This document shows positions 7,209 to 47,028 of a stretch of DNA of 64,000 nt, piece by piece (positions within the stretch are counted from its first letter, which is position 1; every line of letters starts with the position of its first letter). Origin of the DNA: Planctomycetota bacterium (GTDB lineage: Bacteria > Planctomycetota > Planctomycetia > Planctomycetales > Planctomycetaceae); assembly GCA_031431195.1 (NCBI GenBank), contig JANPCU010000176.1, positions 6,131 through 70,130 of the forward strand, in the 5' to 3' direction. The notes below the pieces were generated by a model. That model saw only the letters and a program-made list of their open reading frames with translations. It ran no database searches and had not been told where the DNA came from. The position numbers and the translations under genes were made by a program.

Positions 7209-7222
7209 CTCTCCCTCCCCCC

Positions 7223-9448: not shown

Positions 9449-9457
9449 GGGATGGAA

Positions 9458-9523: not shown

Positions 9524-9539
9524 TCTTGCCCCTCCCCCC

Positions 9540-15632: not shown

Positions 15633-15699
15633 ACTGATTTGCTTCCTAGACCGGCTGTTTGAGCTTCCTCTTCGGCTTCGATCAGCATCTTGTTGCGTT

Positions 15700-17615: not shown

Positions 17616-17624
17616 GGCGACCTC

Positions 17625-21732: not shown

Positions 21733-24414
21733 ATGCTACGGATCAATCAGAACAGTTCGGCGGGTGGGGCGAAGACGTACTACACGCAGGCGGATTATTA
21801 CACCGAGGGACAGGAACTCGCCGGATATTGGCGGGGCATGGGGGCTGAGAAGCTGGGCCTCTCGGGGACGGTCGACAAGGCCGATTGGGAATCGCTGTGC
21901 GACAACCGTTATCCCGGCACGAACCTGCCACTGACGCTGCGGCGGAAGCAAGAACGGCGGGTCGGGTATGACTTCAACTTCCATGTGCCGAAAAGTGTTT
22001 CACTGCTGTACAGCTTGACGCGCGATGAACGGTTGCTGGAAGCATTCCGCGAATCGGTCCGTGACACGATGACCGAGATGGAAGCGGAGATGCAGACTCG
22101 CGTCCGCAAATCGGGCTGCAATGAGGACCGCACGACGGGCAACATGGTGTGGGGCGAGTTCGTGCATTTCACTTCGCGGCCGATCGACGGGGTGCCTGAT
22201 CCGCATCTGCACGCTCACTGCTTCGTGTTCAATACGACGTATGACCAAAAGGAAGTGGCGTGGAAGGCGGGGCAGTTCAGCTCGCTGAAGCGGGATGCTC
22301 CATACTTCGAAGCTCGGTTCCATGTGCGTCTCGCTCGAAGGCTGGGAGAACTCGGACTCGATGTCACACGTCATAAGATGGGCTGGGAGTTGTCGGGACT
22401 CGACAAGAAGACGCTCGACAAGTTTTCTCGCCGCACTGCTCTCATCGAGGAAGAAGCCCGTCGCAAGGGGATACTTGATCCCGTCGAAAAATCGGAACTC
22501 GGGGCGAAGACTCGTGAGAAGAAGCAGAAGGATCTGACGCTCGATCAGCTGCGGGTCGAGTGGCGATCCCGATTGACCGATGACGAGCGGGACCAGTTGG
22601 GCGGCGTGCAGAGCCTCGTCGGGGCCACGCCGATTCCTGAGCAATCGGAACAAGCCCCAACTGTCATGCAGCAATCAATCAGCCATTGCTTCGAACGGAA
22701 ATCGGTCCTGCCTGAGCGAACGCTGTTCGCTGATGCTCTGAAGCGCGGCGTCGGTCGTCTCTCGATCGCGACAGCTGAGAGAGCGTTTCAGGAACAGAAT
22801 CTCATCAACGCCGACCGCGACGGGCGACGTTGGGTCACGACCCGTGAGGTGTTGGCCGAAGAGCGGAAGATGATCGTCTTCGCTCGCCACGGTCGCGGGA
22901 CGCAGTTGCGACTCGGCACGGGGAACCATGTGTTGAAGCGGACTTGGCTCAACCGCGACCAGCAGCGGGCCGTCGAGCATATCCTCGGCTCACGCGACCG
23001 TGTGATCCTGATTCGCGGGGCTGCCGGTGTTGGCAAGACCGCGATGATGCAGGAAGCGGTCGAGGGTGTCACTGCCAACGGTGGTCAAGTCTTCGCATTC
23101 GCTCCGTCCGCTGATGCCAGCCGGGGCACGCTCCGTGAAGTCGGGTTCGAGCGGGCCGATACGGTCGCTCGCCTGCTCCTCGACGAGAATCTGCAACGTG
23201 AAGTTCACGGCCACGTCATCTGGATCGACGAGGCCGGACTCCTCGGCACCCGCACGATGGGCCAGCTGTTCGACCTGGCGGAAAAACTCGAAGCCCGCGT
23301 GGTTCTGTCGGGCGACCGGCGGCAGCACGGGTCCGTCGAACGCGGGGCGGCGTTGCGACTGCTCGAAGAAGAAGCGGGGCTCGTCCCTGCCGAGATCCGC
23401 GAAATCCAGCGGCAGAAAGGCGACTACAAGCAAGCCATCCACGCCCTTTCGGAAGGCCGCATCGACGACGGGTTCCGCCTACTCGACAAGCTTGGATGGG
23501 TGAAAGAAGTCTCTACCGAAGATCGCTATCAAGCCCTCGCGTTCGATTATGTCTCCACCATCGAGGCCCACAAAACCGCTCTCGTTGTTTCTCCGACTCA
23601 CAAGGAAGGCGAAAAGATCACTGCCGAAATCCGCGACCGACTCAAACAATCCGGCCAGCTGCGAGGAGACGAGCATCTGCTGTTGCGGCTGGAGAGTCTG
23701 AACATGACCGAGGTCGAGCGCGGTGAGGCTGAGCAGTACCTCCCTGATGATGTGATCGAGTTCCACCAAAACGCCAAGGGGTTCATAAAGGGAAACCGCG
23801 TCACCGTCGGCGACTCTCCGCTCCCGCTCGAACACGCGAAGCGTTTCCAATCCTATCGCCCCACCGAAATCTCCCTCGCAGCGGGCGACCTGATCCGCGT
23901 CACCAAAAACGGCCAAACGCTCGACGAGCAGCACCGCCTCAACAACGGGTCGATCTATCGCGTTCGCGACTTCGACGCACGCGGGAACATCGTCCTCGAC
24001 AACGGCTGGACCGTCTCGAAAGAGTTCGGCCACCTGTCGCACGGCTACGTCGTCACCTCACACGCCAGCCAAGGCAAAACCGTCGACCGCGTCTTCATCG
24101 GCGAATCCGCCGAATCCCTCGGAGCAGCTTCCCGCGAACAGTTCTATGTCTCCGCATCCAGAGGCCGCGAACAAGTCACCGTCTATACCGATGACAAATC
24201 CCGCCTCCTCGAAGCCATCAGCAGAAGCGACGACCGTCTCACTGCGACCGAACTGGTCCAAACCTCGCGACCCCCGAAAGACAGACCGGGAGCCCAGATT
24301 TCATTCCAACAACACCGTGCCCGGATGCGAAGACAACTCCTTCTCCACAGCGTCTCTCTCCCGGTGAACCCAGCCACGGAACACCAACGATCGGAGCGTG
24401 ATCATGACCGATAG
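21733..24414 (+). CDS. Conjugative relaxase, TrwC/TraI (MOBF) type, with C-terminal RecD-like helicase
   Basis: MLRINQNSSAGGAKTYYTQADYYTEGQELAGYWRGMGAEKLGL, FHVPKSVS, HFTSRPIDGVPDPHLHAHCFVFNTT (His triad). Helicase Walker A ILIRGAAGVGKT and Walker B-like VIWIDEAG. Confidence 0.9.
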   Translation: MLRINQNSSAGGAKTYYTQADYYTEGQELAGYWRGMGAEKLGLSGTVDKADWESLCDNRYPGTNLPLTLRRKQERRVGYDFNFHVPKSVSLLYSLTRDERLLEAFRESVRDTMTEMEAEMQTRVRKSGCNEDRTTGNMVWGEFVHFTSRPIDGVPDPHLHAHCFVFNTTYDQKEVAWKAGQFSSLKRDAPYFEARFHVRLARRLGELGLDVTRHKMGWELSGLDKKTLDKFSRRTALIEEEARRKGILDPVEKSELGAKTREKKQKDLTLDQLRVEWRSRLTDDERDQLGGVQSLVGATPIPEQSEQAPTVMQQSISHCFERKSVLPERTLFADALKRGVGRLSIATAERAFQEQNLINADRDGRRWVTTREVLAEERKMIVFARHGRGTQLRLGTGNHVLKRTWLNRDQQRAVEHILGSRDRVILIRGAAGVGKTAMMQEAVEGVTANGGQVFAFAPSADASRGTLREVGFERADTVARLLLDENLQREVHGHVIWIDEAGLLGTRTMGQLFDLAEKLEARVVLSGDRRQHGSVERGAALRLLEEEAGLVPAEIREIQRQKGDYKQAIHALSEGRIDDGFRLLDKLGWVKEVSTEDRYQALAFDYVSTIEAHKTALVVSPTHKEGEKITAEIRDRLKQSGQLRGDEHLLLRLESLNMTEVERGEAEQYLPDDVIEFHQNAKGFIKGNRVTVGDSPLPLEHAKRFQSYRPTEISLAAGDLIRVTKNGQTLDEQHRLNNGSIYRVRDFDARGNIVLDNGWTVSKEFGHLSHGYVVTSHASQGKTVDRVFIGESAESLGAASREQFYVSASRGREQVTVYTDDKSRLLEAISRSDDRLTATELVQTSRPPKDRPGAQISFQQHRARMRRQLLLHSVSLPVNPATEHQRSERDHDR

Positions 24415-24964: not shown

Positions 24965-27900
24965 TTGAGCATGCGTCGCAAGCCTCCGCATAAGGATCAG
25001 AAGTCGCTGTTCTCGCTGGACAATGACTCACGGGCCGTGAATCATCCGGCTGCACCACAATCAACAGAAGACACCCCTCATGCAGTACAAAACGATCATT
25101 CTCGAACTCCTGCGGCAACAGCGGTCGCTGCACGAACGGTTACGGAAGAGCGACACGCTGTTGGAGACACTGAACGAACAAGCGTTACGACTGCGGGAGC
25201 GGCATCTGGAGTGGTTGGCGGTGTTGCTGGAAGCGACACCGGGGAGCGAACCGAGCCAGCTCACTGCAATGGCGTTCGAACTGGCCCGAGCGGAGTGGGA
25301 GACGAGTCTGGCGACCGACTCGCTGCCAGCGGATCTCGAACCGCTCTGCCTCGACGACGCGATGAAGTTCCTCCATCGTCATTCGTCGCCCGAGTAGCCC
25401 CGCAGCGATATTCACGTTCGCTGTTTGATCCACCTTCAAATCAGATCGCGAAGCCAGCACCCGCTGCGGTTACGCAGAACCGCCCAACGATAGCGACGAC
25501 GACTGGTTCTGCGAGAACGCTCGAACCTTTGGCCTCGGACTCGCCACCGGCGATCCCCCTTATCGCGAGTGGTGAGAAGTCGAAGGCTCGTGATCTCATT
25601 GCGGCGATTCGCACGCTGCAATTCATAGAGCAGGAACACCGCCCCGCGACCGCCGACGAGCGAAACACGCTCGCTCGCTTCGCAGGCTTTGGACCAGTCG
25701 CTCTCTCGCTCTTTCCCGATCCGGTCACGGGGCGATTCAAGGATGAGGGCTGGCGGTCGCTTGGGGAAGAGCTGCAAGGGCTGCTCACTTCGGAAGAATA
25801 TGACAGTGCGAAACGAACGACGTTCAATGCGTTCTACACCTCGCCCACGGTCATCACGGCGATTCATGAAGCGATTGGCCGACTGGGGATTCCGGACGGG
25901 GCCACGATCCTGGAGCCGGGCTGCGGGATTGGCAATTTCATGAGCTACGGCCAGCCTGGGCAGCGGTTTATCGGCATCGAGATGGATGCGATTTCGGGCC
26001 GCATCGCCAAGGCCTGTCATCCCCAGCACGACATTCGCATCGAGAACTTTCGGGATACGAATCTGCCGACCAACCGCATTGATGCGGTGGTGGGGAACGT
26101 CCCGTTTGCCGACCTGAAGCTCGACCATCGCGGGCAGAAGCTGGCACTGCATGACTACTTCTTCGCGAAGTCGATGGACGCTCTCAGGCCGGGCGGCGTG
26201 ATCGGTTTAGTCACGAGCCGCTTCACGCTCGATAAACAGAATGCAGCTGTGCGAGATCTGCTCGCGGAGCAAGCGGATTTCGTGGGAGCGATCCGGCTCC
26301 CCTCCGACGCCTTCAAACGGGAAGGGACAGCTGTCGTCACCGACATCGTGTTCTTGCGGAAGCGAGTGCCGGGCGAACCCGCCCGCCCTGTCGATCCCGA
26401 CTGGCTACAGACGGCACCGCTCCGCATTGAAGGCCATGACTTCCCGATCAACCGCTACTTTATCAATCACCCCGAGATGGTGCTGGGCACACTGTCGCGC
26501 CAAGACACGCTCTATGGCAGCGAAGGCTTTTCGGTCGTTGGGTCTGGGAATTTACAGAGCGACCTTCAGCGGGCGATTCAGCAGCTGCCGAAGTTCGAGC
26601 CAATCAAGGTCACGGCGGAGTCTCACACAGCAGCACCCGCCTTCGTCCCCCCACCTGCCGAGCGGCATGTCAGCGAAGGGAGTTTCTTCGTCAACCAGCA
26701 ACGAGTGGTGCATCAGGTCACAGAAGGACAGGGAGTGCCCGTCGTCTATGGCGGCACGACCCTGCGGGCTGATGGCACGATGACGGGCCAGCGGATATCC
26801 GCACTCATCGAGCTGCGTGACCAAGCCCGACGGGTCTTGCAGTCGCAGAACGAAGGGTGGCCGGTCGAGCCTCGCGATCAAGCCCGTACCGACCTCAATC
26901 GTACCTATGACCGCTTCGTCCGGGCCTATGGTCCCATCAATCACACAACTTTCGGCCACACGAAAGACGGCACTGTCATTCGCCGGATGCCGAATCTCGT
27001 CAAGTTCCGTGAAGACCCTGATGCGATGCTCGTCATGTCTCTGGAAGACTACGACGATGCCACAGGCCGAGCCACCAAAGCGGCGATCCTGCTGCGCGAT
27101 GTGGTGGGGAAGATCCCACCGGTGACGCACGTCCCCACCGCCGAGGCGGGGCTGTTGGTGTCGCTTAACCAGCGGGGACGGGTTGAATTGGAATTCATCA
27201 GACAACTCTACGGCAAATCCGAACCGGAGATCATCGAGGAGCTGGGCGACCTGATTTATTGTGACCCCGTCTCCAAAGCGTGGGAGACCGCCGATGTGTA
27301 TCTGTCCGGCAATGTGCGAGCCAAGCTCGCCACTGCCGCGATCGCCGTTCCCGAGTATGCCCGCAACGCAGCTGCCCTGCGAGCGGTGCAACCCGACGAT
27401 GTGTTGCCCGGCGAGATCGACGCGAACCTCGGTGCCCCGTGGATTCCCGCCACCGATGTTCAAGCCTTTGCCGCTGATCTGTTTCATGTCGATCCGTCAT
27501 CGGTCCCCGTCGGCCACTTGATGCAGGATGCGGTGTGGAACGTGGAACCTGACTACCGGGCGGAACGTTCGGTGGCTGCGACCTCGGATTATGGAACCGC
27601 TCGCGCCAACGGCACATGGCTGCTGGGACTGGCCCTCAACATGAAATCTCCAACGATCTACGACACGCTCCATGACGGCACGCGAGAAGTCAAAACCGTG
27701 AATCAGACGGAAACGCTGGCGGCTCGCGAAAAACAAAAATTGATCAAGGAGAAGTTCCGGGCGTGGGTCTTCACCGATTCGGATCGGACAGAGCGTCTCG
27801 TGCGGCTGTATAACGACACGTACAACAATCTGAGGCCGCGTCAGTTCGATGGCTCGCATCTCGACTTCCCTGGCCTCAACCAGACGCTCTCGCTCCGACC

Positions 27901-30652
27901 GCATCAGGTCGATGCGGTCTGGCGGGGGATGAGTGCGGGGAACACACTGCTGGCTCATACAGTCGGGGCGGGTAAGACGTTCACGATGGCTGCCACCGGC
28001 ATGAAGATGAAGCAGGCGGGCCTCATTCAGAAGCCGATGTATGTCGTCCCCAATCACCTGCTGGAGCAGTTCTCCCGCGAGTTCATGCAACTCTATCCGA
28101 ACGCCCATTTGCTGGTCGCAGCCAAGGAAGACCTGACGCGGGATCGTCGCAAATTCCTGACCGCGAAGATCGCCAGCGGTCAGTGGGACGGCATCATCGT
28201 GACTCACAGCAGCTTCGAGCGGATCGGCATGTCCCGCGGATATCAGGAGAAATTCCTGCTCGAACAGATTGAGAGTTACGACCAGTTGCTGTGCGAGTAC
28301 GCCGGTCAGCGGGGTCAGCACCGCAACCTCATCAAGACCATCGAGAAGCAGAAAGCAGGGCGAGCCGAACGCCTCAAGAACCTTCTGGCCGAAGACAAGA
28401 AGGACGACGGGCTGGTGTTCGACGAACTGGGGGTCGATCATCTCTTTGTCGACGAAGCGCAGTCGTTCAAGAATCTGGAGACGCCGACCAAGATGGATCG
28501 GGTGGCAGGCATTCAGACGGGTGGCTCGGAGCGGGCATTCGATCTCTTACTGAAATCGCAATATCTCAGCGAGCAACATCCGGGGCATGGAGTCACGTTT
28601 GCGACGGGAACACCGATCTCGAACACGATGGTCGAGATGTACACGATGCAGCGGTTCCTCGACCCCGCTGGCTTACGCAGCCGGGGGATCGAGCATTTTG
28701 ATGCGTGGGCGGCGACATTTGGGGAAGTCGTCGAGACGCTGGAACTCTCCCCCGATGGAGCGGGGTTGCGTCCCCGCAGCCGCTTCGCCCGCTTCACGAA
28801 TCTGCCCGAGCTGCAACAGATGTTCCGTGCGTTTTCGGATGTGCAAACGGCGGAGATGCTTGATCTGCCGCGTCCTCACCTGGAAGGCGACAAGGCTCAC
28901 ATCGTCGCCTGTCCAATGTCGCCCCAGCAGGTCGCGTTGCAGAAGCAACTGGTCGAACGCTACGAACGCATTCGCAATGAACGGGTCGATCCGCGTGAAG
29001 ACAACGCTCTGGCGATCACCACCGATGGTCGCAAACTGGCGACCGATGCGCGAATGCTCTCTGCCAACGCTCCGGACTTTCCCGAATCGAAAGTCAATCG
29101 GCTCGTGGAGAACGTCGTCGAGGTTTGGAAACGCACCGCAGCCACTCGCGGCACGCAGATGGTGTTTTCTGATCTCGGCATCAACCCGACGCCGTGGGGA
29201 TATTCGCTCTATGATGAGGTGATTGAAAAACTCGTCGCAGGTGGAATCCCGCGTGACCAAATCGCGGCGATGGGGGACGCCGAATCGGATGCCAAGAAAC
29301 AAGCCCTGTTCGAGCGAGTGCGAAACGGCTCGGTGCGGGTACTGCTCGGCAGCACGCAGAAGATGGGGACCGGGACGAATGTGCAGAAGCGGCTGGTCGC
29401 ATTGCATCATCTCGATGCTCCGTGGAAACCCGCCGAGGTCGAACAGCGTGAAGGCCGAATTTTGCGACAGGGGAACGAGAACGCCGAGGTGTCGATCTAT
29501 CGTTACGTGACCGCTGGTTCGTTCGATGCCTACATGTGGCAGGCCCTGGAAACCAAGGCGAAATTCATCTCGCAGGTGATGAGCGGCCACAACGCCACCC
29601 GTCGCGCCGATGACATCGGCGGACAGGAACTCTCGTATGCGGAAGTCAAAGCCATCGCCTCGGGCAACCCAGCTGTGCTGACCCTCGCCGAAGCCGACGC
29701 CGATCTTCAGCGGTTACACATCCTCAAGAAGAATCACCTCGATGAACAGTTCGTCGCCCGCCGGAATATCCGCGATCTGCCGACAACGATCAGCCGACTC
29801 ACCGAGCAACTGGCCAATCTGTCCACAGATGCCGCCACCCTCGCGCAGCACGCCGATGATCCGCTCGTGATCGCTGGCCGAACATGCCTTCCTGATGAAG
29901 CCATGAAAATGTTGACCAGCTCGCTGAATAGAATCCCCGAACGGGTGCGAGAGACTACCCGCGTGCCGCTGGGAACCTACCGTGGTCTCCGCTTCGGATT
30001 GGTTTTGCACACGAATCAATCCTCCGAGGTCTTCCTGGAAGGGGCGACTTCGCAGCACGCAGGATTATCTCGCGATCACCACGGCCCGCGAGCGATTTTG
30101 AATGCTCTGGAACGAATCACCAGCGAGACACGCAACGACTGCCAGAAACTGGAGCAGCACCTGTCGCTCGCACAAACCCAACTCCAAGACTACCAGTCCC
30201 GCCTCGGAAATGTGTTCGTCCATGCGTCCTACCTCGATGAACTCACCGACCTCCGCGATCAACTCAAAGTTCTTCTGTCCCACACGAATCACACTTCCAC
30301 GGACGAGACCAATCAGGCGGCAACCGATGGCTCACCCGCAACTCCCGAGCCACCGACCGTCTCCGACATCGCAGCCAGAATCAAATCCCTCAAAGCCAGT
30401 CACGCCTTCGAATCCACTCCGCACCGCTCCGTCTCGCAACCCTCCACCGCCGAAGAACCCGTCACCACTCGCATCCGCCGCAAGACATCCATCCAACCGG
30501 CGTCCACTGGTCCAGAAACGACGCTCAGCGTTTCCGCCGCCAAAGTACCTCACCAAACTCACGAACCCGATCTTGCCCCCGTTCTCACCAGCTTCCAACA
30601 ACGCACCCTCCACCAACGCTCCCGCCCCGATCAAGCCCAAACTCCCGCCTGA
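24965..30652 (+). CDS. Giant N6-adenine DNA methyltransferase / SNF2-type helicase fusion typical of conjugative elements (true start probably after 25397)
   Basis: GEKSKARDLIAAIRTLQFIEQEHRPAT, motif I ILEPGCGIGNF, motif IV VVGNVPFAD. Helicase motifs LLAHTVGAGKTFTM and LFVDEAQSFKN, and the C-lobe GTGTNVQKRLVALHHLDAPWKPAEVEQREGRILRQGN. The first ~145 codons are Ala/Gly/Arg/Thr-rich shadow-like sequence overlapping 25080..25397. Confidence 0.85.
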   Translation: MSMRRKPPHKDQKSLFSLDNDSRAVNHPAAPQSTEDTPHAVQNDHSRTPAATAVAARTVTEERHAVGDTERTSVTTAGAASGVVGGVAGSDTGERTEPAHCNGVRTGPSGVGDESGDRLAASGSRTALPRRRDEVPPSSFVARVAPQRYSRSLFDPPSNQIAKPAPAAVTQNRPTIATTTGSARTLEPLASDSPPAIPLIASGEKSKARDLIAAIRTLQFIEQEHRPATADERNTLARFAGFGPVALSLFPDPVTGRFKDEGWRSLGEELQGLLTSEEYDSAKRTTFNAFYTSPTVITAIHEAIGRLGIPDGATILEPGCGIGNFMSYGQPGQRFIGIEMDAISGRIAKACHPQHDIRIENFRDTNLPTNRIDAVVGNVPFADLKLDHRGQKLALHDYFFAKSMDALRPGGVIGLVTSRFTLDKQNAAVRDLLAEQADFVGAIRLPSDAFKREGTAVVTDIVFLRKRVPGEPARPVDPDWLQTAPLRIEGHDFPINRYFINHPEMVLGTLSRQDTLYGSEGFSVVGSGNLQSDLQRAIQQLPKFEPIKVTAESHTAAPAFVPPPAERHVSEGSFFVNQQRVVHQVTEGQGVPVVYGGTTLRADGTMTGQRISALIELRDQARRVLQSQNEGWPVEPRDQARTDLNRTYDRFVRAYGPINHTTFGHTKDGTVIRRMPNLVKFREDPDAMLVMSLEDYDDATGRATKAAILLRDVVGKIPPVTHVPTAEAGLLVSLNQRGRVELEFIRQLYGKSEPEIIEELGDLIYCDPVSKAWETADVYLSGNVRAKLATAAIAVPEYARNAAALRAVQPDDVLPGEIDANLGAPWIPATDVQAFAADLFHVDPSSVPVGHLMQDAVWNVEPDYRAERSVAATSDYGTARANGTWLLGLALNMKSPTIYDTLHDGTREVKTVNQTETLAAREKQKLIKEKFRAWVFTDSDRTERLVRLYNDTYNNLRPRQFDGSHLDFPGLNQTLSLRPHQVDAVWRGMSAGNTLLAHTVGAGKTFTMAATGMKMKQAGLIQKPMYVVPNHLLEQFSREFMQLYPNAHLLVAAKEDLTRDRRKFLTAKIASGQWDGIIVTHSSFERIGMSRGYQEKFLLEQIESYDQLLCEYAGQRGQHRNLIKTIEKQKAGRAERLKNLLAEDKKDDGLVFDELGVDHLFVDEAQSFKNLETPTKMDRVAGIQTGGSERAFDLLLKSQYLSEQHPGHGVTFATGTPISNTMVEMYTMQRFLDPAGLRSRGIEHFDAWAATFGEVVETLELSPDGAGLRPRSRFARFTNLPELQQMFRAFSDVQTAEMLDLPRPHLEGDKAHIVACPMSPQQVALQKQLVERYERIRNERVDPREDNALAITTDGRKLATDARMLSANAPDFPESKVNRLVENVVEVWKRTAATRGTQMVFSDLGINPTPWGYSLYDEVIEKLVAGGIPRDQIAAMGDAESDAKKQALFERVRNGSVRVLLGSTQKMGTGTNVQKRLVALHHLDAPWKPAEVEQREGRILRQGNENAEVSIYRYVTAGSFDAYMWQALETKAKFISQVMSGHNATRRADDIGGQELSYAEVKAIASGNPAVLTLAEADADLQRLHILKKNHLDEQFVARRNIRDLPTTISRLTEQLANLSTDAATLAQHADDPLVIAGRTCLPDEAMKMLTSSLNRIPERVRETTRVPLGTYRGLRFGLVLHTNQSSEVFLEGATSQHAGLSRDHHGPRAILNALERITSETRNDCQKLEQHLSLAQTQLQDYQSRLGNVFVHASYLDELTDLRDQLKVLLSHTNHTSTDETNQAATDGSPATPEPPTVSDIAARIKSLKASHAFESTPHRSVSQPSTAEEPVTTRIRRKTSIQPASTGPETTLSVSAAKVPHQTHEPDLAPVLTSFQQRTLHQRSRPDQAQTPA
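25080..25397 (+). CDS. Small helical hypothetical protein (105 aa)
   Basis: MQYKTIILELLRQQRSLHERLRKSDTLLETLNEQALRLRERHLEWLAVLLE... is clearly more protein-like than the overlapping frame of the giant ORF. Confidence 0.6.
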   Translation: MQYKTIILELLRQQRSLHERLRKSDTLLETLNEQALRLRERHLEWLAVLLEATPGSEPSQLTAMAFELARAEWETSLATDSLPADLEPLCLDDAMKFLHRHSSPE

Positions 30653-31014
30653 CTCCACCCGGCCCTCGGCCTCCGTGGGTCGGGTCTCCCCTCCGAATCG
30701 AACCCTGTTCGTTCGCCCCAAGCCACGCATTTTGGCGGACGGAACAAAACCTTCCCCAAACGGGGAACGGGCGGTCCAGGACTGGCCCGCAGGAGGGCAC
30801 CGCTCTGCACAAGCGAGTCCCCGAGCGCGGAAGAGTGGGAGGCAGCCCAGCGGCCAGCGCGGCCCCGATCCTAGACCGCCCGTGGGGTGTCCCCCCGCTT
30901 CATGCCGTCAGGCGAACAACAGCGCCGCAGGCGACCGAATGTCAGGCCAAAGGCCGCAGCACCAGCGAGCCGCAAGGGGCGTCTCGCCGTTCCTCGCAGA
31001 GAACCGATTTTTTC

Positions 31015-31043
31015 TTGACATCAACACATCACAAATGTACGAT
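31015..31043 (+). promoter_or_regulatory. Sigma70-type promoter TTGACA-N17-TACGAT, predicting a leaderless or near-leaderless mRNA
   Basis: TTGACA 31015-31020, a 17-nt spacer, and TACGAT 31038-31043. ATG 31049 begins 6 nt after the -10 element. A T-tract lies upstream (31008-31013). Confidence 0.5.
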
Positions 31044-31048
31044 GAGAA

Positions 31049-31366
31049 ATGGATGAGAAAGAACCCCCAAAGGGAAAGCCCCCACCACTTGACGAGTCGC
31101 CGCTCGCAAGGTTGGCGGATTTGTTCGGATTGATCGGAGGGCTGCATGAGCAAGAAAAGATTTCGCTCGACGAACGCAATGACCTATTGTCCAGAATCTA
31201 TGACAAGCTCCTTCAAGAGTCGTTTCCAAGAACACAGTTCACTAATCCTGGGCAGTCTCTGTACACAGCAACTGCTATCGTCGATGCGATCACCGCAAGC
31301 ACGATACGCCAAATAACCCAAATGCATCCTGGAATCATCATTGGCACGCTTCCCCTCCACCGCTGA
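31049..31366 (+). CDS. Operon gene 1: small hypothetical protein (105 aa)
   Basis: First ORF of the AT-richer four-gene operon. No motif recognised. Confidence 0.6.
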   Translation: MDEKEPPKGKPPPLDESPLARLADLFGLIGGLHEQEKISLDERNDLLSRIYDKLLQESFPRTQFTNPGQSLYTATAIVDAITASTIRQITQMHPGIIIGTLPLHR

Positions 31367-31384
31367 CCTGAAGCAACTAAATCA

Positions 31385-32476
31385 ATGTCTCCAACTGAAG
31401 TGGCCATTGGCATCGGAAGCACGCACCTGTCAAGCAGCGCATATGTGCTCAACATTGGGACTGGCGAGCTATACAAAGTAGATGGAAGGTCATTAAACAA
31501 GCATGCGATTCAAGAGAATGAATTCACCTCTCGCCTTCTGACGCTATACTCGGACCTAAACCGATTGACCACGTACGCTGGCTTCGACTTGCGGCAATGC
31601 ACTGGACATGTCACCATAAGCCTCCCGGGTGTTGCGTTGCCAAACCAACAGCGGAGCGCCCTTGTTCATTCTCAGAGTGTCTTTCGAGGCCCTCGGGTCG
31701 GCATCTCGATTCTTGACGACACGTGGGCTACCTACTATGCAGAGTCTCTCTCAATGACTGGGATCAGCGCAATCGCTGGAGTTGGAGCATCCGTGTGCAT
31801 AGCGGATCAGGGTTTTCGTCTACATGAAAACTACAAAATGGATGGCTGGGGTCCAGTGATCGGTGATTTCGGAAGTGCCTTTGATATTTCTGTGAACTAC
31901 TTCCGAACGTTAAACCGCAAAAAGGACTCAACGCCAGAAGTCAACTGCACCATTTTCCCATTGATCAAAGAGCTATTCTCGAAAACGGATTTTGTTCTCA
32001 GTTCGCCATCTCATGTGCAGAATTGGTGTGATGGCGTGGCTGCGAGCGTTGGATCTGAGTGGCGGGCACCATTTTCGCTGACAGCAAAGGCGATATCGTA
32101 TGCGGCGGATGCACCAATGGGAACAAACAGCGATGCGAGGACTCTCATCATAGATGCGGCAGCACGTTTTTCTGAGACGGTCGTCTTGGCTGTAAAGAGA
32201 GCCTTGTCATTCGATGTTGCACCGAAGAGCATCGTAATACACGGTGAAATGATTTCTTGGTCTTGCTTGTACACGGATGTGCTCAAGAGTAGGGTGTATT
32301 CACAAGTTGGAGTTCCGCTGGTATACTCCAGATTCGGACCTGCCATTGGCGCTCTCCTTTGGTCTTGCTTTCGCGACAATGTAGAATGCCTTCCCGATCG
32401 AATTCACCTCCGGAACCCCGATGCGATTGATCTCGAGTATCTCCAATCGGTCAGGACTAGGGCACTAGAGATGTAG
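31385..32476 (+). CDS. Operon gene 2: ASKHA-fold ATPase of the BadF/BadG/BcrA/BcrD / N-acetylglucosamine-kinase-like type, with a degenerate phosphate-1 motif
   Basis: VAIGIGSTHL (compare GIDGGGTKT), ILDDTWATYY, ISAIAGVGASVCI (compare iaGTGS), MDGWGPVIGDFGSAFDI (compare GGWGxllGDeGSg), IVIHGEM. 18-bp gap after gene 1. Confidence 0.65.
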   Translation: MSPTEVAIGIGSTHLSSSAYVLNIGTGELYKVDGRSLNKHAIQENEFTSRLLTLYSDLNRLTTYAGFDLRQCTGHVTISLPGVALPNQQRSALVHSQSVFRGPRVGISILDDTWATYYAESLSMTGISAIAGVGASVCIADQGFRLHENYKMDGWGPVIGDFGSAFDISVNYFRTLNRKKDSTPEVNCTIFPLIKELFSKTDFVLSSPSHVQNWCDGVAASVGSEWRAPFSLTAKAISYAADAPMGTNSDARTLIIDAAARFSETVVLAVKRALSFDVAPKSIVIHGEMISWSCLYTDVLKSRVYSQVGVPLVYSRFGPAIGALLWSCFRDNVECLPDRIHLRNPDAIDLEYLQSVRTRALEM

Positions 32477-32503
32477 GCATCGCTATCAGCATAGGAGCTA
32501 CGC

Positions 32504-34450
32504 ATGAATTCTCCAAAATCTTCAGGGAACTCCGAACTTGCTAAGCGAGCGTTTGGAAGCAATGACTTACAGACGCTTACGGCTTCAATGCTGACTGACA
32601 AGAAGGTACTTCGTAGGCTCTACGCGAGAGTATCCGACACTGCTTCGAGATACGATATGGCTATTCAGATGTTCTCATTTTTGCCGAGCAACAACTTGTG
32701 TGTGCTTCTGGATTTTGATGTCATTCATTCTTACATCACTCCAGAAAAAGACCGTCTGGATGATCGTGAAAGCATGGAACAGGCTGCACATATAGCTCAC
32801 TTTTTTGAAAGAGCGACGGTTCCCTACCAACTTGCTCATGGAGCCGTTCGTGATCTACGGCGATTCTTGGTTAGATACAGCCCCTTCGTCAACTTGTCAA
32901 CAGAAGAGGAATGCGACAGTCTGCTGCAACAGATTATGGATATTACCAAGAAGAGCGTTAAGGAAGTCGACGTTGTAAATGAGTATGAAGAGTGGAAGGC
33001 CGCTGTGGAAGCGTCGAAGCGAAGTGACTGCGTTGAGGATCGAGTGCTTGTCCGAAGATTACATACCGTGCTGTTTGGCTCGCCAGCCACACTGAGTCGA
33101 TTCCGTGGAGTGGTAGGGGGCTACAACGATGCGCTTGCGGTGCGTTTTGCTCGTTCGTTGGATGATCTGTTCCAGACAGAGAAGAAGCGCACTCGTCAAA
33201 GGCTTGGGCGTTCTTCTGACATCGAATCCCATCGACATAAGTTCCGTGCCGTTGAACGCAACGATGGGATCAATCTTGCCACAGCATGTCGGCTGAACAG
33301 TGATGCCAAGTCTTCTAACGATGAGTCAGAGCCACACTATGTGGTTCTCACTAAAAGGGAAGATGTTTACAATATTTCGTGCGATTATATCGACGATCCG
33401 CGGAACGATTGTGACTACCGATTTGCAATGCTGCCATCGCAAATGTATTGGCTAGACATCACCGGCTTCGTAAATTGGGGAGATGCTGTATGCGAGTCGG
33501 CGGAAGTATGCAAGGAGTCATTGAACGACCTGGCGAAATCATTACGAGTTCAAATGCGGAATGTAAATTACGGCGGAGCAGAATGGCTGCCTGTATCGCT
33601 ACGCAATGCAATGACACGATGGTCTTCCGAAGTAAATGCGTTTACCCTCCTAGACATTGAGCAGAGCGTTTCGGAGTCCAGATTCATACCATCCGGAGAT
33701 AAGGATTCACTTGAGTCAGAGAGCTTCTTTAAACTGCTGTTAAACATTCGTTCGATAGCGATCTCCGCGCCGATTCGTGCATTTGTGTCGCGAGCGAGTA
33801 TGGATAATGGTCGTGCTTCGTACGCGATATGCGATGATTCGCCCGGAAGGACAGGATGGCTATGCGATCTGATTGTAGGCGACAGCGGCAGGTGGACTGT
33901 ACTTTTTTCAGTGCATGGAAACTTCTTTTCATTTGTCAGAGCCTATGCAATGCTCATGTCGGAGTGCGATTCTCCTGCCGTAGCCGATCCAGTAGATGTG
34001 GTGTGTTGCGGCCCAGAGGGTCACTTTGAGGGAAATGGGATTCGTGTCACAACCTCCTATGGAGTACTTTGGTATGTCGTTTCTGGATCAGTGAGCACTA
34101 TTCCCAGCCGCATAGACTCTTTGTCAAAGCTTGCTGCCGAAGCTACCCAATTGCTGACAAGAGGTAGGGACACAGTGTCTGCCGCAACAGAGGAAAGACG
34201 CGAGATCGTACCGCGAGTCCTCTCAATTGCTGTTATTAGTGATCCGTATGAAGTGGAGTTCTCTCTCCAGCCATCCGATGGGGAAAATCGCAAGTTTTGT
34301 GTTCTTCGTGGTCGCGGGAAACTGCTGGGTAAGGTCGCGGCATTTGTTCATTTGTTGGGGGCCACATTGCTACCGGAGGAAACCCTTCAGGACATGCTTG
34401 CGTGCAGAGTGAATGGGAATCCGAAACCAAGAGGAGATCTCCATGATTGA
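32504..34450 (+). CDS. Operon gene 3: large orphan protein (648 aa), no confident domain; possible split PIN-like N-terminal region
   Basis: GGAG lies 6 nt upstream of ATG 32504. CVLLDFDVIHSYI and NDGINLATACRLNS...HYVVLTKREDV faintly resemble PIN motifs. Confidence 0.6.
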   Translation: MNSPKSSGNSELAKRAFGSNDLQTLTASMLTDKKVLRRLYARVSDTASRYDMAIQMFSFLPSNNLCVLLDFDVIHSYITPEKDRLDDRESMEQAAHIAHFFERATVPYQLAHGAVRDLRRFLVRYSPFVNLSTEEECDSLLQQIMDITKKSVKEVDVVNEYEEWKAAVEASKRSDCVEDRVLVRRLHTVLFGSPATLSRFRGVVGGYNDALAVRFARSLDDLFQTEKKRTRQRLGRSSDIESHRHKFRAVERNDGINLATACRLNSDAKSSNDESEPHYVVLTKREDVYNISCDYIDDPRNDCDYRFAMLPSQMYWLDITGFVNWGDAVCESAEVCKESLNDLAKSLRVQMRNVNYGGAEWLPVSLRNAMTRWSSEVNAFTLLDIEQSVSESRFIPSGDKDSLESESFFKLLLNIRSIAISAPIRAFVSRASMDNGRASYAICDDSPGRTGWLCDLIVGDSGRWTVLFSVHGNFFSFVRAYAMLMSECDSPAVADPVDVVCCGPEGHFEGNGIRVTTSYGVLWYVVSGSVSTIPSRIDSLSKLAAEATQLLTRGRDTVSAATEERREIVPRVLSIAVISDPYEVEFSLQPSDGENRKFCVLRGRGKLLGKVAAFVHLLGATLLPEETLQDMLACRVNGNPKPRGDLHD

Positions 34451-35921
34451 TCGAATCTGCCGAGTGGCGGGTGAAGTTACTCCACAGTCATTCGAGTCAC
34501 TCATGAGACTGCGTGATTGTGCTCATGCGAAGTCATGGACAATAAGTCATGATGGTGTCCGAGTAGATGTAGCGGTTACTGTTGGATCGTCATGCGACAG
34601 TTCTGCCGCTAACCCAAAATGCCCAAACGCGTTCTCTTCGGCTGTTTGCGTTTATGCAGTGAGAAGGCCCGTCAGTAACGCTGAGGGCGAACGCCGTAAT
34701 GCGATTGTTAGAGTCACACTTGGAGTAAGAGATGATGCCACGGTGGCATTTGTCGATCGCGGTGGTCAAGTGGTCAGGACAATATTGATAGAACTGTGTC
34801 CCGAAGGTCCGGTGCGCAATCAGAAGAATCTTAGTGTGTTTTCTCAGGCGTGTCAGATGACACATTGCGGAGACGGCGTGGCACGCGTTTCTGTCGTGGT
34901 CGAGGTGCTTGCTGAAGTCACGCTCAGAGAATCAAAGTATGGTAGCGTTACTGCCACGCACTATGTTGTCCACACGGTTGAGGACCGGCTGTTCGTCGAG
35001 TCACGGCATATTGGCACTGTGGTTACTCCAGCGAGCGTAATAATAGCGAGTAGAATGGACGAGCTTCAGAATGGAAGCTTGCCACGACACGCGATTGTGG
35101 ACTTGTCGTGGTTTGAGTGTGTACCAAACTATTTGCGTGTAGAGAGCAAGCAATACATGATGTCAGTAAAAGCGCTGGTTGATGAGTCAATGAATGTTCG
35201 AGAAGAAGTTGGGGGATTCTTGGTCTGGGGCAGGTCTGGAGTCGGGAAGACGAGCTTCTTTGTTGGTGCGTCTGAGAGCTTGTCGGGGGCGGAGTTGATT
35301 GACGGAAAGATCCAGGGATCTTGGGACGATAAATGGCAGAACCTGCAGAGATGTCTAAATGAAAAGCGACCTGTCATTTTGTTTGTGGACGAGGCGGATT
35401 GCGAGCCTGCCGACAAGCGATTCTTTCAGGTCTTGTTGGACAAGATTGACGATCTGGTGAAATCTGGTGTCCCTTCTCTGGTCGTTCTTGCTGGAAGCGC
35501 TGTTGGCGGAATGTCACAAATGGTCGCGAAAATCGAGAACTCGGATCGTGGAATCGACGTTCTGACGCGGCTAGCCAAGCGTGTGTCTATTCCTGATTTG
35601 AGTTCTACAGAGGTTGTTGTCGCATTCTGTTCCGCATTGTTCAGACATGCGAAGAAGGGTGGTGTGTCTCTATCTCAGTGTTTTGTCGAATGGCGTCTAG
35701 CCTTGGCTCTTGCGGGGCAAGGTTTTGAGAATCTCAGAGATGTAGATAGAATGGCTAAGGAGGTCGCTCTGGCGAAGCAAATGAGAGGCATTCCTTGGTC
35801 TGTGTCTTTGGCTGACGTTGAATCGCTGGGCGTATTGAAGGCAGATGTACTGGAGATAGCTAAGAGCAGAATAATCGTGGCCGAGTGGTGTGAACTTGTG
35901 TGGCATCGGACGAAGTCATAG
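34443..35921 (+). CDS. Operon gene 4: AAA+ ATPase (classic-clade-like) with a ~250-aa beta-rich N-terminal domain of unknown type
   Basis: Walker A FLVWGRSGVGKTS, Walker B PVILFVDEAD, and LVVLAGSAV...IDVLTRLAKRVSIPDLSSTE. ATG 34443 overlaps the gene 3 stop (ATGATTGA). The track uses GTG 34413. Confidence 0.75.
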   Translation: MIDRICRVAGEVTPQSFESLMRLRDCAHAKSWTISHDGVRVDVAVTVGSSCDSSAANPKCPNAFSSAVCVYAVRRPVSNAEGERRNAIVRVTLGVRDDATVAFVDRGGQVVRTILIELCPEGPVRNQKNLSVFSQACQMTHCGDGVARVSVVVEVLAEVTLRESKYGSVTATHYVVHTVEDRLFVESRHIGTVVTPASVIIASRMDELQNGSLPRHAIVDLSWFECVPNYLRVESKQYMMSVKALVDESMNVREEVGGFLVWGRSGVGKTSFFVGASESLSGAELIDGKIQGSWDDKWQNLQRCLNEKRPVILFVDEADCEPADKRFFQVLLDKIDDLVKSGVPSLVVLAGSAVGGMSQMVAKIENSDRGIDVLTRLAKRVSIPDLSSTEVVVAFCSALFRHAKKGGVSLSQCFVEWRLALALAGQGFENLRDVDRMAKEVALAKQMRGIPWSVSLADVESLGVLKADVLEIAKSRIIVAEWCELVWHRTKS

Positions 35922-36329: not shown

Positions 36330-36718
36330 AGCGGGTGGTGGTGGATGCCTCGGCATGGCTGGCGTTTTTGCGGGTGGAGCCGGGGGCTGAGGTGGCGGTG
36401 AAGTACATGTTGTTTGCCGCGATGTCGGCGGTGAATTTGTCGGAAGTGCTGGAAACGTGCGTTCACAATGAGCTGGCGGTGAACAAGGTTTTGGCACTCC
36501 TCAAGAACTGGGGGATCGAGATTGTGCCGTTCGATATCAAGCAAGCGACCATCGCAGCTGAGATCAAATGGCAGACGGGGGAAGCGACGTTGACGATCTC
36601 CGAGCGGGCGTGTCTGGCCTTGGCTCGGTCGCGAGGAATTCCGGTGCTGACCTCGAATCGTGAGTGGTCGAAGCTCGACCTGGGAATTGAAGTGATTCAG
36701 ATTCGTGAGGGGACATGA
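36326..36718 (+). CDS. vapC: PIN-domain toxin (VapC-like)
   Basis: GTG 36326 overlaps the vapB stop (GTGA). VKRVVVDASAWLAFL..., ERACLALARSRGIPVLTSNREW. Confidence 0.8.
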   Translation: MKRVVVDASAWLAFLRVEPGAEVAVKYMLFAAMSAVNLSEVLETCVHNELAVNKVLALLKNWGIEIVPFDIKQATIAAEIKWQTGEATLTISERACLALARSRGIPVLTSNREWSKLDLGIEVIQIREGT

Positions 36719-37791
36719 GCGAAGGACTCACCCCTGGTTCGTCTCCCGATCAAGAGGCAGAGCAAGCACGAAAAGTTCCCGAACAGGCACGGGGCAACAT
36801 AATTGCCGCGACCGAGCTGGTCGCCTATGCAGGAACTTCCTCCTTGCAGAAAACAGAGGGGACAAAAGGCGAAGCATTGCCCGCGCTGCTGGCCCGAACG
36901 GGAACGGCGGGGCAGTTCGCCTGGGACGAATTCTTCAGCGGGCAGCTGCGAAACAAGCACACGCGAGCGGCGTATTTGCACGCGGTGCGGCGGTTTCTGG
37001 AGTGGCTCGAAGGGCGGGAGCCAGACCTGGCTCGCGTGACTCCCGGTCTGGTCGGTCGGTACTTCGACGATCTGCCCGTTGCGATCCCGACGAAGAAGCT
37101 GCATTTAGCCGCGATCCGAAGGTTCTTTGATCTGCTGGTACAGAGGCATGTCGTGGTTCTCAACGCGGCGCATTCGGTACGGATGGAACGGTTCTCCGTG
37201 ACTGAAGGGAAAACGCCAGCGATCACCACAGACCAAGCTCGCCAACTCCTGAAATCGATCGACTGCTGCACCCCCGCCGACTTCCGCGACAAGGCCGTCA
37301 TCGCCACGCTGATCTTCACCGCCGCACGGGCCGGAGCCGTCGCCAAGCTGCGAGTGCGTGATCTAATCGACGAAGGCGGGCAGTACGTCCTCAATTTCCA
37401 CGAAAAGGGTGGCAAGCAGCGGAGCATCCCCGTGCGATTCGATTTGCAGCAACTGCTGCTCGACTACCTCAACATCGCCGACCCGCTACGAACCCAAAAA
37501 GACGCTCCACTGTTTCGGTCATTGGAGACGAGCGGCACGCTGTCGTCTCGCCCGCTCAACGGCGTGAACATCTGCCGCATGATGAAACGGCGACTGGCCG
37601 CTGCGAAGTTGCCGACGCACATCTCCCCGCACTCGTTCCGGTCCTGCACCGCGACGGATCTCCTTTTGCAGGGCGTTTCCCTGGAAGATGTCCAATACCT
37701 TCTCGGCCACAGCGACAGCCGAATCACCAAGCTCTACGACCGCCGCCAGCATCAGGTGACGCGGAACATCGTCGAGCGGATTTCGGTCTGA
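36715..37791 (+). CDS. Tyrosine recombinase (XerC/D-like; candidate multimer-resolution or second integrase)
   Basis: The ATG overlaps the vapC stop (ATGA). SAM-like N-domain AAYLHAVRRFLEWL. Catalytic region HSFRSCTATDLLLQGVSLEDVQYLLGHSDSRITKLYD. Confidence 0.85.
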   Translation: MSEGLTPGSSPDQEAEQARKVPEQARGNIIAATELVAYAGTSSLQKTEGTKGEALPALLARTGTAGQFAWDEFFSGQLRNKHTRAAYLHAVRRFLEWLEGREPDLARVTPGLVGRYFDDLPVAIPTKKLHLAAIRRFFDLLVQRHVVVLNAAHSVRMERFSVTEGKTPAITTDQARQLLKSIDCCTPADFRDKAVIATLIFTAARAGAVAKLRVRDLIDEGGQYVLNFHEKGGKQRSIPVRFDLQQLLLDYLNIADPLRTQKDAPLFRSLETSGTLSSRPLNGVNICRMMKRRLAAAKLPTHISPHSFRSCTATDLLLQGVSLEDVQYLLGHSDSRITKLYDRRQHQVTRNIVERISV

Positions 37792-45831: not shown

Positions 45832-47028
45832 TTACCCCACGGGCGTGGCCCGCTTTGCCTGTGCCAGCATGTGTTCGGGGTTATGGCTCAGATGCTGATA
45901 CACCCTCGCGAGCGTACTGGGGTCGGAATGTCCCATCAGGATCGCCACCGTCAGCCCGTCCAACCCCGACTCCAACGCCCTGGTCGCCCACGCATGTCGC
46001 AAATCATACAGCGAATATCGCAGAGCGAACTTCTTCGCGTGCTGACGACGAGCGATATTTCGCGACTGATCCCGCAGGTACTCGGGAGTCTTGGCCACCA
46101 ACTGTCCGCCGACCTGACGATGCGTCTTCAGCTTGACTCTGATCTGGTCGACCAATTCCTTCGGGACGGGGATTCCCTGGCGTTCGTACTCAGCCTTGCC
46201 AATCCGACTTTGCAACTGACCGAACTTCCGGCAGACCTTGTTGGGCTTCCACGGCACACCATTCGTCTGTCGCATGATCGGGCCGATGGGATTTCGTTCA
46301 CAACAACGCGAGACGATCTCCAACGCCACCTCCGTGAGATAGATGATCCTCGGTTGCCGTTTCCCCTTCGCCTCCGCCTTTGGAAACACGATCCGTTGGC
46401 GAGCCACATCGACATGCCGAGCCTCGATCCGCACCGACTCTTGAGGTCGAGATCCCGTCTCCCACGTCAACACGACCAAATCCCGAAATCCCGCATCAGT
46501 GATCTCGGCGAGCAACCGCAAATAGTCGGCCACTGGAATCGTGACCTCGCGGTATTCACTCGGGGGAAGTGGCAACATCAGCAGCGGGTTCTTCTCGATG
46601 TAGCCTTGATGCAGCGACCACCGCACGCACGCCTTCACCGAGCGAATGCGGTTCCGCCGTGAAGACTTCGACAGATGCGGCGACTCGTCGACCCACTGCT
46701 GCACATGAAAGGGCTTCAACTCTGCCACCGTCAGGGTCGGATGCTTCTTGCAAAAGATCTGCAACTGCTGGCGATACCAGACATACGTCCCAGCCGAACG
46801 GTTGGCCTTCACCCATTCCAAATACGCATCCGCCAACACCGCCACGAGCGGACTACGCACACCCGCTGCTGCCAACCCCAGCGGAGTCCGATGCTGCACC
46901 TGCATCAGTGCGTGGTACTGCTGAAAGGCTGCGTCCTTATCTGGACCCAGACAGTGTTGCTTGCGGTCAATCTCGACATACCACAGCTGCCGAGCCTGCT
47001 TGAAAAACGGTTTCGGAAAGTGAGCCAT
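45832..47028 (-). CDS. int: Tyrosine integrase
   Basis: SLYDLRHAWATRALESGLDGLTVAILMGHSDPSTLARVYQHL. Start ATG 47028 (MAHFPKPFFKQARQLWYVEI); the track maximum is 47100. Confidence 0.9.
   Translation of the reverse strand: MAHFPKPFFKQARQLWYVEIDRKQHCLGPDKDAAFQQYHALMQVQHRTPLGLAAAGVRSPLVAVLADAYLEWVKANRSAGTYVWYRQQLQIFCKKHPTLTVAELKPFHVQQWVDESPHLSKSSRRNRIRSVKACVRWSLHQGYIEKNPLLMLPLPPSEYREVTIPVADYLRLLAEITDAGFRDLVVLTWETGSRPQESVRIEARHVDVARQRIVFPKAEAKGKRQPRIIYLTEVALEIVSRCCERNPIGPIMRQTNGVPWKPNKVCRKFGQLQSRIGKAEYERQGIPVPKELVDQIRVKLKTHRQVGGQLVAKTPEYLRDQSRNIARRQHAKKFALRYSLYDLRHAWATRALESGLDGLTVAILMGHSDPSTLARVYQHLSHNPEHMLAQAKRATPVG

Follow-up and report, generated by a model that had tools for sequence, protein, structure and literature searches.

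A rare three-gene module on a planctomycetal mobile element as a candidate for an undescribed conflict or defence system

Among the described conflict systems, those of CoCoNuT type III combine CnuD, an Hsp70-like protein of the acetate and sugar kinase/Hsc70/actin (ASKHA) fold, with the McrB-type AAA+ GTPase CnuB (eLife 2024, PMC11090510), while PNP_UDP_1 domains fused to non-housekeeping modules are proven ATP-cleaving immune effectors (bioRxiv 10.1101/2023.01.24.525353). Here, a stretch of 64,000 nucleotides from a Planctomycetota bacterium (assembly GCA_031431195.1, contig JANPCU010000176.1, positions 6,131 to 70,130), referred to as the window, was analysed, in which four tightly packed genes lie within a mobile element. 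Genes 2, 3 and 4 (components A, B and C) were found as a triad of constant order in at least 16 distinct loci (L numbers below), and we see about an even chance that they form a three-component conflict or defence system, so far undescribed and horizontally mobile, in which C is the output subunit. This reading is favoured by the strict co-occurrence and order of A-B-C in those loci, the concordant identity ranks of the three components across them, the start/stop overlaps or tiny gaps between B and C, the modular C-terminus of C (AAA+, PNP_UDP_1 or short tails), the neighbourhoods of mobile-element, toxin-antitoxin and defence type, and a patchy, rare distribution together with a G+C content of the module below that of its flanks. 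The genes, as called from open reading frames (ORFs), and the promoter in front of them were as follows:

31015 to 31043, plus strand: probable sigma-70-type promoter, TTGACA-17-TACGAT (consensus scan, 10/12 positions)
31049 to 31366, plus strand: gene 1, 105 aa
31385 to 32476, plus strand: gene 2, component A, 363 aa
32504 to 34450, plus strand: gene 3, component B, 648 aa
34443 to 35921, plus strand: gene 4, component C, 492 aa

The resemblance to CoCoNuT type III lies in the pairing of a degenerate ASKHA protein (predicted to bind ATP with scant hydrolysis) with an AAA+ NTPase in a multi-gene predicted conflict system (PMC11090510), as well as in zinc-ribbon and Ig-like beta modules and in defence-type contexts. 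However, component A falls in the NagK/MurK/BadF branch and lacks the Hsp70 substrate-binding domain, the AAA+ domain found here is of the classic clade (Cdc48/Vps4-like) and not of the McrB type, and the triad has no McrC/DUF2357, coiled-coil, CSD (cold-shock domain) or nuclease-tandem parts. Neither McrB nor DUF2357 gave a Pfam or PADLOC match in any component. CoCoNuT type III is the nearest analogy; as these parts differ and no homology was detected, it is a resemblance and not a membership. With regard to the effectors Cap17 of CBASS (cyclic-oligonucleotide-based anti-phage signalling systems) and DtcC of Detocs, one relative of C (L016) carries PNP_UDP_1 behind a system-specific N-module and so follows the same architectural principle (bioRxiv 10.1101/2023.01.24.525353), whereas the C of the window bears an AAA+ domain, and neither A nor B is related to CD-NTase/SAVED or to the two-component proteins of Detocs. 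Component A shares its fold and several motifs (DDxxA, GxG.S and GWG..GD.GS) with the NagK/MurK kinases (PF01869), but it lacks the phosphate-1 Asp and the Glu of GDEGS, and its gene is invariably accompanied by those of B and C on mobile islands. In turn, C has the Walker A, Walker B and SRH-like (second region of homology) motifs of VAT, Cdc48/p97 and Vps4, but it is a single AAA+ module without the canonical N-domain or a second ring, fused to a novel Cys/His beta-rich domain, and the AAA+ part is replaced or absent in relatives.

No significant match to any of the four window proteins was found in PADLOC-DB v2.0.0, including its candidate PDC systems. The searches of Pfam, NCBIfam and PHROGs with these proteins returned weak Pfam signals alone (BcrAD_BadFG for gene 2 and AAA for gene 4), and a keyword literature search combining BadF, BcrAD_BadFG or ASKHA with defence or conflict retrieved no description of such a system. 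A previous interpretation of the same DNA, made without database searches (the sequence-only reading), had held that no named defence, toxin-antitoxin or metabolic system fits this gene set, and that statement stood against all these sources and the PDB. What is new here is therefore the undescribed gene set, while the logic, that of NTPase-based conflict systems with exchangeable effectors, is familiar.

To begin with, a search with gene 2 gave seven A homologues of 30-55% identity, and every contig with an A homologue encoded on a single strand A (338-387 aa), B (590-694 aa) and C (347-527 aa). An exhaustive phmmer search with gene 3 against 1.84 billion representatives gave eight relatives only, all of 609-694 aa, each of which was flanked by A and C where its locus could be viewed. 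The triad was reached independently starting from the A homologues and from the B homologues, and it was complete wherever the contig was long enough. The co-occurrence check proposed in the sequence-only reading was run accordingly, and homologues of genes 2-4 were found together in every locus examined. Moreover, each of the three components was homologous across loci by BLAST, with concordant identity ranks: 54% (A), 44% (B) and 43% (C) between L005 and L009, and 33%, 24% and 20%, respectively, between the window and L005. The junction between B and C was an overlap or a tiny gap (-23 to +6 nt) in 10 of the 13 readable loci, among them the window, L005, L009, L016, L018, L027, L028 and L031, and wider gaps were found in L017 (18 nt), L021 (26 nt) and L002 (79 nt).

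In the window itself, genes 1 and 2 are separated by 18 nt and genes 2 and 3 by 27 nt, while genes 3 and 4 share an 8-nt overlap, ATGATTGA, with the ATG of gene 4 at 34443 and the TGA of gene 3 at 34448-34450. These ORF coordinates confirmed the tight plus-strand arrangement described previously. In addition, GAGGAG lies 6 nt upstream of the ATG of gene 4 and GGAG 6 nt upstream of that of gene 3. The genes are real and operon-like, with translational coupling. Although the longest possible ORF of gene 4 begins at 34413, the start at 34443 was adopted because of the distance between the start and an invariant Cys in the C homologues, which is 4-14 residues (4-9 in 7/9 sequences).

The distribution of the module was patchy and very rare. 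A total of 3 true triad loci were found in 185,579 species-representative genomes and 8 in 241 million metagenome records, and no copy of the module turned up in IMG/VR or among 72,556 plasmid and 50,697 phage records. Word-indexed homologue searches with genes 3 and 4 recovered the query alone, and the four window proteins were singletons at 90% identity among approximately 15 billion proteins. Most loci belonged to Planctomycetota or Acidobacteriota, the named hosts being Planctomycetota (including Schlesneria) and an Acidobacteriia metagenome-assembled genome (MAG). Besides, a second and divergent copy of the triad was observed in L028 (SRR20217181), whose B was 26% identical over the N-terminal 282 residues, the sole alignable part. 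The accession of this run adjoins those with the window's own copy, namely L001 (SRR20217180) and L029 (SRR20217191), and they are probably from the same project. Several variants of the triad may coexist in one community.

Regarding component C, the comparison of its homologues indicates that it is a shared N-module with a swappable C-terminal domain. Effector subunits of many conflict systems are built in this way, from a shared docking module and exchangeable C-termini. The following features were located in the window:

34443 to 35102, plus strand: N-terminal module of C, with invariant Cys/His positions followed by a probably beta-rich region
35103 to 35921, plus strand: classic-clade AAA+ ATPase domain of C
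35229 to 35255, plus strand: Walker A, GRSGVGKTS
35376 to 35399, plus strand: Walker B, ILFVDEAD
35481 to 35498, plus strand: VVLAGS, possible sensor 1 by analogy
35556 to 35570, plus strand: DVLTR, with the SRH-like Arg, a putative Arg finger by analogy

The match of gene 4 to PF00004 (AAA) reached 22.5 bits, for a cut-off of 21.2, and the profile of the AAA+ family matched VAT, Cdc48/p97 and Vps4 with E-values from 1.6e-6 to 1e-4. The invariant residues of this domain were G48, K49, S51, D96, E97, D99, G131, S132, D152 and R156, and its Walker A, Walker B and SRH-like Arg assign it to the classic clade. The AAA+ C-terminus was the commonest form, appearing in the window, L005, L009, L017, L018, L027, L031 and one further contig. 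In L016 (an Acidobacteriia MAG), C (13050-14588) has PNP_UDP_1 (PF01048) in place of AAA+ (E 2.9e-15) and shows EMEG...ISD, a signature of MTA/SAH nucleosidases (5'-methylthioadenosine/S-adenosylhomocysteine). The C proteins of L021 and L023 end in a short tail with no domain match, and that of a further contig, with 390 aa, is too short for an AAA+ domain. The composition of ASKHA, orphan and AAA+ proteins highlighted in the sequence-only reading is hence that of the window, while elsewhere the AAA+ part gives way to a PNP nucleosidase or to short tails. The N-module, opposite to the C-terminus, kept C6, C26, H28, C51 and C60 (codons at 34458, 34518, 34524, 34593 and 34620), and these Cys/His positions were invariant in 9/9 sequences despite 14-21% identity, which makes a zinc site probable. 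The profile of the N-module found no relative in the PDB; the description of gene 4 as an AAA+ ATPase fused to a beta-rich N-domain of unknown type agreed with these results.

Component A was the best conserved of the three (mean pairwise identity of 39%), with 55 invariant columns in the alignment. Its motifs in the window are:

31409 to 31426, plus strand: GIGSTH, replacing DGGG(S/T)
31715 to 31729, plus strand: DDTWA
31775 to 31792, plus strand: AGVGAS
31835 to 31876, plus strand: KMDGWGPVIGDFGS

The family profile matched the MurNAc/GlcNAc kinase MurK (8zo3, E 7.8e-11) and an archaeal hexokinase (2e2n, E 1.6e-6) in the PDB, and on the basis of these matches A is assigned to the NagK/MurK/BadF sugar-kinase branch of the ASKHA fold. 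Gene 2 scored 24.9 bits against BcrAD_BadFG (PF01869), under the Pfam gathering cut-off of 31.5, and 6/7 of the A homologues carry precomputed PF01869 matches. A 14-residue block, K(I/M)DGWGPVIGDFGS, was near-invariant (13/14 positions). However, several kinase motifs were altered. In place of the phosphate-1 motif DGGG(S/T)K, every member had NGGH or GSTH, whose His was invariant, so that the phosphate-1 Asp was missing in 8/8 of them (N or G instead); GTGS had become GxGAS; and the Glu of GDEGS was Phe in every member, GDFGS being invariant (n=8). On the other hand, the DD(T)WA motif, equivalent to that of the catalytic Asp, was invariant. In NagK-type kinases, the altered residues are the Mg/phosphate-binding Asp and a sugar ligand. 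Binding of a ligand or nucleotide, rather than efficient phosphotransfer, thus appears the likeliest activity of A, and the earlier proposal of a BadF/NAGK-type ASKHA protein with a degenerate active site was supported by the MurK profile match and the altered kinase motifs. Two other identities were discarded. A BcrA/BadF/HgdC activase was rejected because no invariant Cys was found in the A alignment, no activase appeared in the PDB profile matches, and B and C have no dehydratase domain. A plasmid partition protein of the ParM type was likewise rejected, as A is of the NagK type, neither B nor C resembles ParR, and chromosomal islands carry the module too.

In component B, conservation was concentrated in a split alpha/beta core, comprising aa 58-128 (39% identity) and aa 240-330 (28%), while the insert and the C-terminal half were only 17-19% identical. 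The C-terminal half corresponds to aa 331-648 and is beta-rich from about aa 427. The invariant residues were D70, D72, F100, F101, Y108, G113, R199, D254 and N257, of which the acidic core can be written as DxD...D.xN, and two motifs of the core were located in the window:

32705 to 32722, plus strand: LLDFDV
33260 to 33280, plus strand: NDGINLA

The acidic cluster could form a metal-dependent site for catalysis or binding, and the C-terminal half, given its fast evolution, may serve in recognition. A variable half next to a conserved core would be consistent with a sensor-plus-enzyme layout. The Pfam scan of 11 B members gave no match, nor did B match anything in PADLOC, NCBIfam, PHROG or the PDB (by sequence and by profile); the sole hit of gene 3 to PADLOC, Cas1b, was noise (E 0.045, 11 bits). 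An AlphaFold2 (AF2) model of B, built from a 9-sequence alignment, was of moderate quality (pLDDT, the predicted local distance difference test, of 70.7 and pTM, the predicted template modelling score, of 0.58). Foldseek with this model found nothing significant in the PDB (best E 0.19), and its best match in BFVD (E 1e-3) had a template modelling (TM) score of 0.11 and was treated as noise. Gene 3 had been described as a protein with no recognisable domain, and so it was in Pfam, PADLOC, NCBIfam, PHROG, PDB and Foldseek searches alike. A PIN-like core, which the motifs LLDFDV, DAxNLA and LLT might evoke, was tried and rejected: there was no PIN domain among the top 50 Foldseek matches in the PDB, insert-deleted chimeras gave no PIN family in the Pfam scan, hhalign against the VapC of the window gave a probability of 0.1, the core profile found nothing in the PDB, and B lacks the fourth acidic residue. 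From motif shape alone, the DxD strand could also be read as TIR-, REC-, HAD- or Toprim-like, but no search supported any of these.

The neighbourhoods of the other loci were then compared. In L005, from a Planctomycetota MAG, a defence-associated reverse transcriptase (DRT) gene of the RT_UG5-nitrilase type (5490-7811, minus strand; PADLOC E 1.5e-190) is the next gene downstream of the triad, in convergent orientation. The triad of L016 is located between chromosomal two-component genes and an island, and its neighbours include an XRE helix-turn-helix gene with a DUF6036 nucleotidyltransferase (8443-9655; weakly AbiEii-like), a DUF5919 gene (14654-15475) and an integrase (17217-18350). Transposases were found on both sides of L027, in an 8.7-Mb genome. 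In L031 (5011-8673), an integrase and three toxin-antitoxin pairs come after the triad, with PIN/Phd, Phd/ParE and MazE genes; this neighbourhood is of the same kind as the vapBC and recombinase genes beside the module of the window. Furthermore, a DUF5615 toxin-like gene lies about 6 kb away in L021, an HNH/AP2 gene is near L022, and one contig showed a weak Peptidase_U49 (Lit-like) match downstream. The homologues therefore appeared in mobile-element or defence-type neighbourhoods, which was the second check proposed in the sequence-only reading.

The surroundings of the module in the window are an integrated conjugative or mobilisable element, extending from about 12 to 47 kb and bordered by chromosomal genes, such as those for SecA, a sigma-54 activator and UDG. 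Its main genes are:

21733 to 24414: TrwC relaxase
24965 to 30652: giant methyltransferase (MTase)/SNF2 protein, 1895 aa
36066 to 36718: MazE/PIN (vapBC)
36715 to 37791: tyrosine recombinase
42685 to 44166: T4 coupling protein
45832 to 47100: second integrase

A related integrative and conjugative element (ICE) from Planctomycetota was found in L002/L003. Three of its genes can be set against their window counterparts: TrwC (61% identity), a 137-aa gene (48%) and an ORF of the methylase region, whose window homologue lies at 17625-18365 (69%). In this element, the module occupies the same site, downstream of TrwC and behind a conserved GC-rich non-coding block, for which window 30829-31007 is about 70% identical to L002 5250-5427. 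The giant MTase/SNF2 gene is absent at the corresponding place (window 24965-30652 vs. L002 4846-5250). By this alignment, the insertion or deletion separating the two elements is the giant gene and not the module, and within this ICE family the module is older than the split of the two.

The G+C content per kb was 0.485-0.516 in the block of the module and 0.59-0.63 outside, with abrupt changes at about 31000 (from 0.715 to 0.48) and 36000 (from 0.51 to 0.625), so the low-GC block that had been estimated by hand was recovered. The module also had a lower G+C content than its flanks in L002, L016, L021 and L027. Since this holds in several hosts, the low G+C content is no mark of recent arrival, and the idea of a later nested acquisition was weakened by the presence of the module in the related element, where its position and the non-coding block in front of it are the same. 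Flanking repeats that could mark a nested insertion were just pairs of 14-24 nt, at chance level. A second patch of lower G+C content was observed at the left end of the element (13000-16000; 0.505-0.53 vs. about 0.6), holding a 603-aa tetratricopeptide-repeat (TPR) protein (13207-15018, minus strand), which may be another cargo gene.

With respect to the start of the operon, gene 1 homologues immediately precede A in L004 (42% over 85 aa, E 2e-16) and in L002/L003 (ORF 5542-5871), while in the other clade no comparable ORF was found upstream of A. Gene 1 had no family matches in Pfam, PADLOC, NCBIfam or PHROGs. Judged by this distribution, it is an accessory restricted to a single subclade of three loci (the window, L004 and L002/L003). 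As its homologues are confined to the subclade of the window, the conserved unit is A-B-C, and of the four-gene system originally proposed, genes 2-4 remain. The promoter was anticipated by the sequence-only reading at its present position. A lone consensus match is weak evidence, because 9 promoter-like sites were observed in the region against 3.7 +/- 2.3 in shuffles. However, TTGACA lies 28, 32 and 29 nt before the ATG of gene 1 in the window, L004 and L002/L003, respectively, with the hexamer starting 34-38 nt upstream of it, and the three share the same geometry, with about 17-18 nt separating TTGACA from a -10-like hexamer that stands 5-9 nt before the ATG, although the proteins are only 21-38% identical. 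The promoter of the window is probably real, since its geometry recurs upstream of such diverged homologues. In the window, the -10 hexamer ends 5 nt from the ATG, so the mRNA of gene 1 would probably start at or close to it and be leaderless or nearly so.

Between the MTase/SNF2 gene and this promoter there is a GC-rich (0.67-0.72) non-coding block (30653-31014). An inverted repeat in the same intergenic region (30767-30781 and 30869-30883) spans the start of the stretch conserved in L002 (30829-31007). This block could be an operator, a small RNA or other cis element of the ICE; the Rfam scan of the window gave zero matches. Long Pro/Arg-rich ORFs, such as 30102-31133 (plus strand), overlap the SNF2 gene and the intergenic region at 28.5-31 kb and are most likely high-GC artefacts and not genes. 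The gene caller of the source annotation placed three small minus-strand genes there instead (L001 185-1201).

From the context described above we infer that the triad has a defence function, most likely directed against phages or mobile elements and of the abortive-infection type; the roles of the components, the formation of a complex and the trigger are put forward on the same footing. In this scheme, the switch for regulation or sensing would be A, which would bind a nucleotide or ligand and turn it over poorly. The large protein B would serve as scaffold or sensor, with an acidic core that might be a metal-dependent catalytic or binding site, and recognition of the trigger would fall to its fast-evolving C-terminal half. 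C would use its Cys/His N-domain for docking, and its output would come from the exchangeable C-terminal module, namely a classic-clade AAA+ unfoldase or remodeller in the window and a PNP-family nucleosidase in one relative. A more daring version, which we consider rather doubtful, is that of a new immune machine in which the altered sugar-kinase-fold protein A senses a small molecule (e.g. a cell-wall or nucleotide-sugar infection signal) and relays it via B, an enzyme of new fold, to the zinc-domain adaptor C with interchangeable killers (AAA+ unfoldase or ATP nucleosidase), B and the N-domain of C then being new folds or families.

Several points weigh against a conflict or defence system. 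Just one neighbour, the DRT, has been validated as a defence gene, and most of the approximately 16 loci are on short contigs, too few for enrichment statistics. PADLOC gave no match to any of the four window proteins, which leaves the module unconnected to known systems. A Cdc48/Vps4-type AAA+ protein is an unusual 'effector' and could alternatively be a regulator. The putative catalytic core of B has no recognisable fold, the PIN-like guess having failed, and the AF2 model of C, from a 6-sequence alignment, was too poor to use (pLDDT of 45). The analysis of the L016 PNP domain covered PF01048 membership and similarity to MTA/SAH nucleosidases, and its place in the immune Cap17/DtcC clade would be putative. 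Finally, some copies appear decayed, with A split into two ORFs in L024 (1983-3095), intact in the near-identical L023, and truncated to 276 aa in L027 (8951-9781).

Other explanations were weighed against the same observations. The triad might serve the element rather than the host, as a selfish module for addiction or stabilisation, for the exclusion of competitors or for counter-defence during transfer, with a logic like that of vapBC. This agrees with its conservation in one ICE family, where it follows TrwC at a constant site (the window and L002/L003), with the integrase and toxin-antitoxin genes beside both L031 and the window copy, and with the conservation of its own constitutive-looking promoter. 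Nevertheless, the triad also occurs away from recognisable conjugation genes (L016, L027 and L005), it is absent from the 72,556 plasmid records, and a machine of three proteins and two NTPases is far more complex than known addiction modules, so that we regard the selfish explanation as fairly unlikely. More improbable still is a protein-remodelling or stress module, in which an ASKHA protein and a Cdc48/Vps4-like unfoldase would work with B as the substrate adaptor, as bi-chaperone-like cargo without an immune role. The ASKHA fold of A would fit such a module, as would an AAA+ domain closest to VAT, Cdc48 and Vps4 with an SRH-like DxxxR, in the commonest form of C; yet A is of the sugar-kinase branch, not Hsp70, and has no substrate-binding domain, and the replacement of the AAA+ domain by a nucleosidase or its loss would be intolerable for a core motor. 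Nor would housekeeping proteostasis be expected of a module that is extremely rare, sits in a mobile context and has a fast-evolving B and C.

A metabolic operon, with A as a genuine NagK/MurK-like sugar or amino-sugar kinase and B and C as unrecognised enzymes of a niche carbohydrate or cell-wall recycling pathway, seems very improbable. Although the best PDB relatives of A are a MurNAc/GlcNAc kinase and a hexokinase, and DD(T)WA is invariant, the loss of the phosphate-1 Asp in all 8 A members and the changes from GTGS to GxGAS and from the Glu of GDEGS to Phe speak against a working kinase. Moreover, no sugar transporter, hydrolase or regulator co-occurred with the triad, whose neighbours were mobile-element, toxin-antitoxin or defence genes, and no NCBIfam metabolic equivalog was matched.

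The module is very rare and occurs in hard-to-culture phyla, which limits its appeal. The swap from AAA+ to PNP offers an experimental handle, as the PNP variant predicts ATP or nucleoside depletion, and the structures of B and of the N-domain of C would be well worth solving. Even as a merely selfish module, the triad would remain a conserved feature of one ICE family. If it is a defence or conflict system, it would be a new family made of parts not seen in such a role before, that is, a NagK/MurK-type ASKHA core, a protein of about 640 aa for which Pfam, the PDB and BFVD gave no relatives, and a Cys/His adaptor accepting varied outputs, and it would come from Planctomycetota and Acidobacteriota, phyla that are under-sampled in defence catalogues and whose immune repertoires are barely explored.

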